A stretch of DNA of 64,000 nucleotides from Escherichia coli (GTDB taxonomy: Bacteria; Pseudomonadota; Gammaproteobacteria; Enterobacterales; Enterobacteriaceae). The notes under the pieces are model-generated. The model was not told where the DNA came from. It worked only from the letters and a program-made list of their open reading frames with translations, and searched no databases. Of this stretch, positions 53,874 through 54,302 are shown one piece after another (positions within the stretch are counted from its first letter, which is position 1; every line of letters begins with the position of its first letter). The stretch lies in assembly GCF_024700885.2 (NCBI RefSeq), contig NZ_CP117016.1; one strand, given 5' to 3'. Made by a program: the position numbers and the translations under genes.

Positions 53874-54302
53874 ATGGCAGTTTCAGCAAGAAATCAATTA
53901 ACCGGAACAGTTAGCGCAGTAGCAATGGGCGCTGTGAATGATGAAGTAGAACTGACGCTGGCAGGTGGTGCAAAACTGGTGGCAATTGTGACTCACAGCA
54001 GCCAGCAGGCTCTTGGTCTGGCAAAAGGGAAAGAAGCGATTGCCCTGATTAAAGCCCCGTGGGTCACGCTGGCAACGGAAGACTGTGGACTGAAATTCTC
54101 TGCTCGCAACCAGTTTGCTGGCAGCGTGTCGACAATCACCGAAGGCGCAGTGAACGCCACTGTCCATATCATAACGGATGCGGGTTTTGAAATTGTGGCA
54201 GTGGTAACAAATGAAAGTCAGGATGAAATGAAACTCACCACTGGCTCGCGCGTTATTGCATTGATCAAAGCATCAGCCATCCTGATTGCCACCAAAGCGT
54301 AA
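53874..54302 (+). CDS. tandem molbindin (Mop/TOBE) domain protein, putative molybdate-binding protein
   Basis: Two internal repeats (SARNQLTGTVSAV... and SARNQFAGSVSTI...); SD gaaaggagg upstream of ATG 53874; start chosen at the RBS-backed internal Met. Confidence 0.75.
   Translation: MAVSARNQLTGTVSAVAMGAVNDEVELTLAGGAKLVAIVTHSSQQALGLAKGKEAIALIKAPWVTLATEDCGLKFSARNQFAGSVSTITEGAVNATVHIITDAGFEIVAVVTNESQDEMKLTTGSRVIALIKASAILIATKA

Follow-up and report, generated by a model that had tools for sequence, protein, structure and literature searches.

The window analyzed here, a contiguous stretch of 64,000 nucleotides from Escherichia coli (contig NZ_CP117016.1), is identical to the sequence of strain MLI114 (NZ_CP117013.1) and harbors, between fhlA and ygbA, a gene encoding a predicted ModG-like oxyanion-binding protein with two tandem Mop domains (the di-Mop gene, abbreviated mop in gene orders). 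The features of the locus are as follows:

51751..53829, plus strand: fhlA, formate hydrogenlyase transcriptional activator, 692 aa, the last named gene of the hyp-fhlA cluster (Pfam Sigma54_activat, GAF and HTH_8; RefSeq annotation in MLI114)
53840..53845, plus strand: TATACT, a conserved -10-like box and candidate (inferred) promoter, located 34 nt 5' of the ATG within the fhlA-mop spacer of 44 nt
53864..53869, plus strand: Shine-Dalgarno sequence AGGAGG, 4 nt 5' of the ATG, read from the sequence
53874..54302, plus strand: di-Mop gene, 142 aa (ORF, domain matches and ModG match)
53883..54071, plus strand: Mop/TOBE domain 1, aa 4-66 (best Pfam stretch, 4-66)
54090..54293, plus strand: Mop/TOBE domain 2, aa 73-140 (second TOBE/Mop match and alignments)
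54310..54340, no strand assigned: GC-rich hairpin with T-run, intrinsic-terminator-like, a 14-pair stem followed by TTATTTCTTT, between the convergent mop and ygbA (terminator scan)
54341..54685, minus strand: ygbA, the convergent downstream neighbor, 114 aa here (PF11756, E=4e-41; NF007713; annotations)

The open reading frame extends from the ATG at 53874 to a TAA ending at 54302 and comprises 142 codons and a stop. The original prediction of a 143-aa ORF was thus right as to the frame and wrong as to the length, since 143 counts the stop codon. Its description of the product as two molbindin-like repeats preceded by a good Shine-Dalgarno sequence was borne out by the HMM search and by AGGAGG at 53864-53869, 4 nt before the ATG. 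Among the Pfam families, PF03459 (TOBE) matched the protein twice (E=8.7e-34, 116 bits against a cut-off of 22.3), and the NCBIfam model TIGR00638 (Mop) likewise showed two matching stretches (E=2e-41, 139.8 bits against a cut-off of 55). The two halves of the protein shared 43% identity when compared with each other (E=3e-18), and only TOBE families matched the 142-aa protein in Pfam, which leaves exactly two tandem Mop domains in about 140 aa. The domain scores, together with the conservation across genera described below, put a chance match out of question, and 53874-54302 is an intact, genuine gene. An alternative GTG start at 53835, which would give a protein of 155 aa, was rejected as all orthologues are 142 aa long, the Shine-Dalgarno sequence precedes the ATG at 53874, and the RefSeq start is the ATG; GGAGG or GGAGA was found 5' of the ATG in all the genera inspected. 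RefSeq already names the gene product "TOBE domain-containing protein" (WP_001469273.1) or, in some genomes, "molybdopterin-binding protein." No paper describing the E. coli or any other enterobacterial orthologue was found among those searched. The protein is uncharacterized yet routinely annotated, and it is a known kind of protein and not a new kind of system.

Structure prediction with AF2, built on a 22-sequence alignment, gave a model with a pLDDT of 93.8 and a pTM of 0.85. The top Foldseek matches of this model were the ModG structures 1H9J, 1H9K, and 1H9M (TM 0.95, rmsd 1.3 Å), and ModG 1H9J was also the closest solved structure by sequence (E=5e-33, 49% identity over the full length), followed by the di-Mop domain of E. 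coli ModE (E about 1e-15) and then by single-domain Mop and Tub. ModG of Azotobacter vinelandii is a cytoplasmic di-Mop molybdate binder that consists, like the protein described here, of two Mop/TOBE domains alone (141-145 aa vs. 142 aa), and the motifs SARN, T-x-x-S/A, and KA(P/S) occur in both halves of each protein. The two differ in their genetic setting. E. coli does not fix nitrogen, and its di-Mop gene follows hyp-fhlA and converges on ygbA. The context of modG, by contrast, is the mod locus and the physiology of nitrogenase (PMC11980592). In A. vinelandii, modG is situated next to modEABC; no such linkage to a mod locus was found for the enterobacterial genes, the neighbors of which are hypE, fhlA, and ygbA.

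The C-terminal di-Mop domain of E. coli ModE (PDB 1H9S, 1O7L, 1B9M) has the same fold (TM about 0.89-0.91), 36-39% identity to the di-Mop protein, and identical ligand columns in the first domain (S, R, T, S, K, A). However, ModE carries an N-terminal DNA-binding domain, which the di-Mop protein does not have, and its second Mop domain shows NADN and NAD in place of SARN and KA, both of which are intact in the second half of the di-Mop protein. The single-domain molbindins, Clostridium pasteurianum MopII (1GUG) and Eubacterium limosum Tub (9BEB), match each half of the protein (E about 3e-9, TM to target ~0.9), and the numbering of their type-1 and type-2 ligands coincides with that of domain 1; they are, however, single domains of roughly 70 aa that form hexamers, whereas two domains are fused here. 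The TOBE domains of the ABC ATPases ModC, MalK, PotA, and CysA share the beta-barrel fold (TM 0.55-0.71), but the di-Mop protein has no ATPase domain. The equivalog models agree with these differences: the score for ModE (NF007957) was 87.8 bits against a cut-off of 369, with the match confined to profile positions 124-261, and the scores for ModC/WtpC were 45-48 bits against cut-offs of 285-440, with the match confined to the C-terminal TOBE positions. As these scores are far below the cut-offs and involve the TOBE part only, the protein is neither such a regulator nor such a transporter subunit. By its architecture, predicted fold, and predicted ligand residues in both domains, the di-Mop protein is of the ModG type.

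The ligand residues were assigned with the list given in the Tub structure paper (PMC11980592). To the type-2 site of E. limosum Tub, one subunit contributes Ser4, Arg6, Lys60, and Ala61 and the neighboring subunit contributes Ser40, and the type-1 site, located on the threefold axis, is formed by the backbone of Ala20-Val21-Asn22; these oxyanion sites resemble those in Mop, ModE, and ModG (PMC11980592). Tub residues 2-68 align to residues 2-68 of the di-Mop protein, and hence the residue numbers transfer directly. The predicted ligands are the following:

Type-2 ligands, domain 1: S4, R6, T40, K60, A61
Type-2 ligands, domain 2: S76, R78, T112, K132, A133
Type-1 loop, domain 1: A20-V21-N22
Type-1 loop, domain 2: A92-V93-N94

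In the alignments of 22 sequences, the ligand columns were invariant or at least 90% conserved. The ModG trimer binds eight molybdates, and a preference for molybdate or tungstate is not separable by sequence (PMC11980592). Because two Mop domains are fused, a trimer of the di-Mop protein would equal the hexamer assembly, as judged from ModG. By homology, the protein would form such a trimer, giving a hexamer-like ring of six Mop domains in which either oxyanion, molybdate or tungstate, may be held between domains (type-2 sites) and on the threefold axis (type-1 sites), with eight molybdates expected per trimer by analogy to ModG. The bound oxyanion would be buffered or stored in the cytoplasm for molybdenum-cofactor enzymes. 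By this analogy, the protein most likely buffers or stores molybdate in the cytoplasm in the manner of ModG, and possibly tungstate as well.

A physiological role in tungstate binding, similar to TudG, in which the protein would sequester tungstate and thereby protect the synthesis of molybdoenzymes or supply a tungsten-using enzyme, appears improbable. E. coli is not known to have tungstoenzymes, and ModG, the closest characterized relative, is a molybdate protein. TOBE proteins nevertheless bind both anions, so that the physiological metal is not readable from the sequence, and structures of the ModE di-Mop domain and of MopII with bound tungstate exist. E. limosum Tub is a tungstate store, but tungsten use is predicted from the presence of TupA or WOR genes in a genome (PMC11980592).

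Sequences with the potential to direct expression of the di-Mop gene were found in the spacer. A hexamer of the form TATA[AC][AT] was present 16-45 nt upstream of the ATG, mostly at 34 nt, in 15 of 38 distinct upstream sequences as against 2.2 on average and at most 8 in composition shuffles, a test that overstates the significance as the upstream sequences are related by descent. The -10-like box is still present where the rest of the spacer has diverged and in the relocated copies of Salmonella, where both TATACT and the Shine-Dalgarno sequence are kept. The consensus promoter scan returned no site and no canonical sigma-70 promoter, and there was no good -35 element for TATACT. The conservation of TATACT suggests that the di-Mop gene likely has its own promoter. 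The terminator scan found none in the 44-nt fhlA-mop spacer, and read-through from hyp-fhlA transcripts is therefore possible; in Lelliottia, a GC hairpin lies between fhlA and the di-Mop gene. From these signals, transcription of the gene probably starts at a weak promoter of its own, continues into it from fhlA, or does both.

Other regulatory elements were also considered. The ModE operator follows the pattern TATAT-N7-TAYAT. In the fhlA-mop spacer, conservation is limited to one half-site-like element (GTTATAC) and does not extend to the second half; a ModE operator was hence rejected and the element was read as the -10-like box. A scan of 53000-55200 against Rfam showed no RNA family and hence no Moco riboswitch. 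In Phytobacter and Kosakonia sp. S29, in which hypE precedes the gene and fhlA is absent, a perfect inverted repeat, CTATACCCAT-N9-ATGGGTATAG, is located ~60 nt upstream and may be an operator; it is absent from the window.

The FhlA protein of the window shows 99% identity to that of K-12. In K-12 MG1655 (NC_000913.3), the end of fhlA (2856416) and the start of ygbA (2856453) are separated by a gap of 36 bp with no annotation inside. The di-Mop ORF is accordingly absent from K-12, as had been anticipated; the close adjacency of the two genes was also stated correctly, the exact spacing being 36 bp and not about 50 bp. DH5alpha and O157:H7 resemble MG1655 in that the gene is absent from the fhlA-ygbA gap. 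Among complete E. coli genomes, 1892 of 5426 (35%) carry the gene, always on the chromosome and in a single copy, and it is intact at ≥80% coverage in 1889 of the 1892 carriers. The single E. coli genome that represented the species in a one-per-species scan gave no match. The reference genomes, with the phylogroups to which we take them to belong, are distributed as follows:

CFT073 (B2): gene present
ST131 isolate (B2): gene present
042 (D): gene present
MG1655 (A): gene absent
IAI1 (B1): gene absent
O157:H7 (E): gene absent

The gene is thus variable among strains, as proposed earlier, and being absent from K-12 it marks a non-K-12 backbone in the strain sequenced here.

All the strains examined that do not carry the gene share an identical junction, TAA-CTGCAAATTGCCGGACAGATCTGCCTGTCCGGCATACT. 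The same junction was found in two strains in which the flanks are of a divergent haplotype (about 94.6%) and the FhlA and YgbA proteins equal those of IAI1. In strains of the K-12, O157, and IAI1 type, a hairpin homologous to 54310-54340 stands directly 3' of fhlA, and this retained hairpin is especially like the one that follows mop in Citrobacter amalonaticus.

Database homologues with 77-99% identity were found in Escherichia fergusonii, Salmonella, Klebsiella, Raoultella, Kluyvera, Pluralibacter, Pantoea, Yokenella, Enterobacter, Lelliottia, and Kosakonia. Synteny was evaluated with tblastn for FhlA in 45 loci, which came from look-ups of contigs and from scanning a single genome of each species. 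In about 35 of the 45 loci or species, covering more than 10 genera, the gene was preceded by an FhlA homologue that ended 36-104 bp before it. The order hyp-fhlA-mop(-ygbA) is kept in Escherichia albertii, E. fergusonii, Citrobacter, Raoultella, Klebsiella, Kluyvera, Enterobacter, Pluralibacter, Yokenella, Lelliottia, and Kosakonia, and the order fhlA-mop occurs also in one Escherichia clade strain and in Pseudocitrobacter. The ygbA gene is usually placed directly downstream of mop. In Phytobacter, fhlA is missing and the order hypB-hypD-hypE-mop-ygbA remains. The identity of the Mop protein across genera tracks that of FhlA and is equal to it or above it: relative to the window, Mop and FhlA are both 98% identical in E. 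albertii, and the corresponding values in Citrobacter (at least seven compared) are 92-94% and about 91%. Pairwise dN/dS against 18 orthologues was 0.02-0.10, and 0.04 within E. coli; 18 of 18 orthologues were intact with no internal stops. The gene has a GC content of 50.5% and an unremarkable base composition, and no repeats or mobility genes flank it in the window. The synteny, the dN/dS values, the intact orthologues, and the GC content together point to an ancestral gene under strong purifying selection with no recent acquisition.

The Salmonella enterica copies (87-88% identical; two clusters examined) are situated away from fhlA, in islands with IS66 or IS21 fragments and fimbrial usher genes nearby, and one of them is near a gene pair with molybdopterin-oxidoreductase (PF00174) and cytochrome b (PF01292) domains. 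As these copies are not beside fhlA, Salmonella was left out of the synteny evidence; neither S. enterica nor K. pneumoniae contributed a locus to the scan in which each species was represented by one genome. In Raoultella, Klebsiella, Pseudocitrobacter, and an Enterobacter sp., a sitABCD-like metal ABC transporter (ZnuA, ABC_tran, and two ABC-3 genes) of about 3.3-3.8 kb lies between the gene and ygbA; this insert is presumably reminiscent of the fhlA-proximal end of Salmonella SPI-1.

The original prediction of a strain-variable accessory gene holds for the variability but not for "accessory" in the sense of a gain, in view of the same site in more than 10 genera and the shared deletion junction. 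Horizontal gain by some E. coli, with insertion between fhlA and ygbA, would be in keeping with the presence of the gene in just 35% of complete genomes, with the adjacent ygbA-mutS interval being a known hotspot that holds an island of ~18 kb in the window's own strain, and with the copies of Salmonella serovars at other loci beside IS elements, which show that the gene can move. It is contradicted by the outgroup synteny, since more than 10 genera have the gene in this place and orientation behind hyp-fhlA at identities that match or exceed those of FhlA, and by the occurrence of the gene in E. albertii, E. fergusonii, and the Escherichia clade strain. The GC content of 50.5% with no flanking repeats or mobility genes, and the single junction of the gene-less strains, which retains the post-mop terminator hairpin, also argue against it, and such a gain is very unlikely. 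It is still harder to credit that the gene is a decaying, functionless remnant heading for loss in all E. coli. Its disappearance from most E. coli genomes and its interruption by IS1 in one strain could be read in this way, but the analysis of selection (dN/dS of 0.02-0.10, or 0.04 within E. coli, with no internal stops in 18 orthologues) contradicts it, as do the integrity of the gene at ≥80% coverage in all but three of the carriers and the conservation of the Shine-Dalgarno sequence and ligand residues.

The di-Mop gene is hence an ancestral enterobacterial gene that was lost in the K-12 lineage and not gained. The sharing of one deletion junction by A, B1, and E strains fits a single ancestral loss, and the simplest account is a single deletion in the ancestor of A/B1/E, with one end directly behind the fhlA stop codon and the other directly ahead of the terminator; this is based on six reference genomes from phylogroups A, B1, B2, D, and E and on one shared junction. 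Such a deletion would have removed precisely what lies between the fhlA stop codon and the shared hairpin. The B2 and D strains as well as the strain sequenced here retain the gene.

Several further differences between strains were observed around the locus. The C-terminus of YgbA (window 54341-54352, compared with 16454-16470 of a second retrieved locus) varies by allele, with 114 aa (ending in RPKK) in carriers of the di-Mop gene and 117 aa (ending in RPKKPHE) in K-12, O157, and IAI1-type strains, and a small indel beside the hairpin separates the alleles. In E. coli FDAARGOS_1285 (NZ_CP070152.1; 4001-4930 of the retrieved locus), IS1A cuts the TOBE gene after nt 138 and abuts nlpD, indicating that the segment ygbA-mutS-...-rpoS is gone and that this strain would lack MutS and RpoS. 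In CFT073, norV and rpoS near the locus are frameshifted pseudogenes according to RefSeq (4946-6386 and 39763-40760 of the retrieved segment). The ygbA-mutS interval, a gap of roughly 290 bp in K-12, is occupied in the window strain by an AT-rich island of ~18 kb (54900-64000, extending beyond the window; 9200-27100 of the retrieved locus) that contains hypothetical membrane proteins, a relaxase, several tyrosine recombinases, tRNA-Asp, tRNA-Val, and a pair of UvrD-helicase and ATP-dependent nuclease genes; three island ORFs at 55312-56943 gave nothing significant in Pfam. Related islands with retron Ec48, TIR, or HNH cargo occupy the same site in other strains, and the interval thus looks like a defense-island hotspot on a mobilizable element.

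The location of the di-Mop gene after the hydrogenase-maturation and FhlA genes suggests, from position, expression under fermentative conditions. Formate dehydrogenase H is a molybdo-selenoenzyme made under these conditions, and a particular service of the di-Mop protein to this enzyme or to formate hydrogenlyase, in line with the original suggestion that the molybdenum need of FdhF is involved, would be plausible in view of the gene position. Formate hydrogenlyase and other molybdoenzymes are, however, functional in K-12, B1, and O157 strains without the gene. As K-12 makes a functional formate hydrogenlyase, the gene is dispensable for that pathway, and any role must depend on the conditions, such as scarce molybdate or excess tungstate.

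The lasting association of the gene with fhlA, or with hypE in genomes that have no fhlA, bears also on a regulatory role, in which a molbindin would sense molybdate and modulate the formate hydrogenlyase regulon through contact with FhlA or through mixed oligomers with the ModE di-Mop domain. The 39% identity to that domain and the common fold would allow this, and transcription of hyc and fdhF in K-12 is reportedly molybdate-dependent, according to the Shanmugam laboratory. The molybdate dependence of the regulon was, however, described in K-12, which itself has no such gene; the protein has no DNA-binding or other effector domain; and the linkage to fhlA may be mere inherited gene order. 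A regulatory molbindin is therefore unlikely, with roughly one chance in eight. A small probability of the same order attaches to the broader proposal that the placement at the hyp-fhlA end reflects function. According to this, the protein would be a dedicated molybdate (or tungstate) buffer or sensor for formate hydrogenlyase that feeds or gates molybdenum for formate dehydrogenase H or tunes FhlA-dependent transcription, and it would have been overlooked because the model strains K-12, B, and O157 descend from the deleted lineage.

Taken as a whole, the best explanation, to which we assign a probability of about 75%, is an ancestral ModG-type molbindin at the 3' end of hyp-fhlA, which would be expressed from its own promoter and/or by read-through and would have been removed by one deletion in the ancestor of the A/B1/E strains. 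The significance of the finding is modest. In the reference genomes checked, the gene is a clean presence/absence marker that separates A/B1/E from B2 and D. K-12 is without a predicted ancestral enterobacterial molybdate-binding protein that uropathogenic and other B2 and D strains and most neighboring genera keep under strong purifying selection. Since K-12 lacks a gene that its relatives retain, work on molybdenum homeostasis and formate hydrogenlyase in K-12 misses one component.
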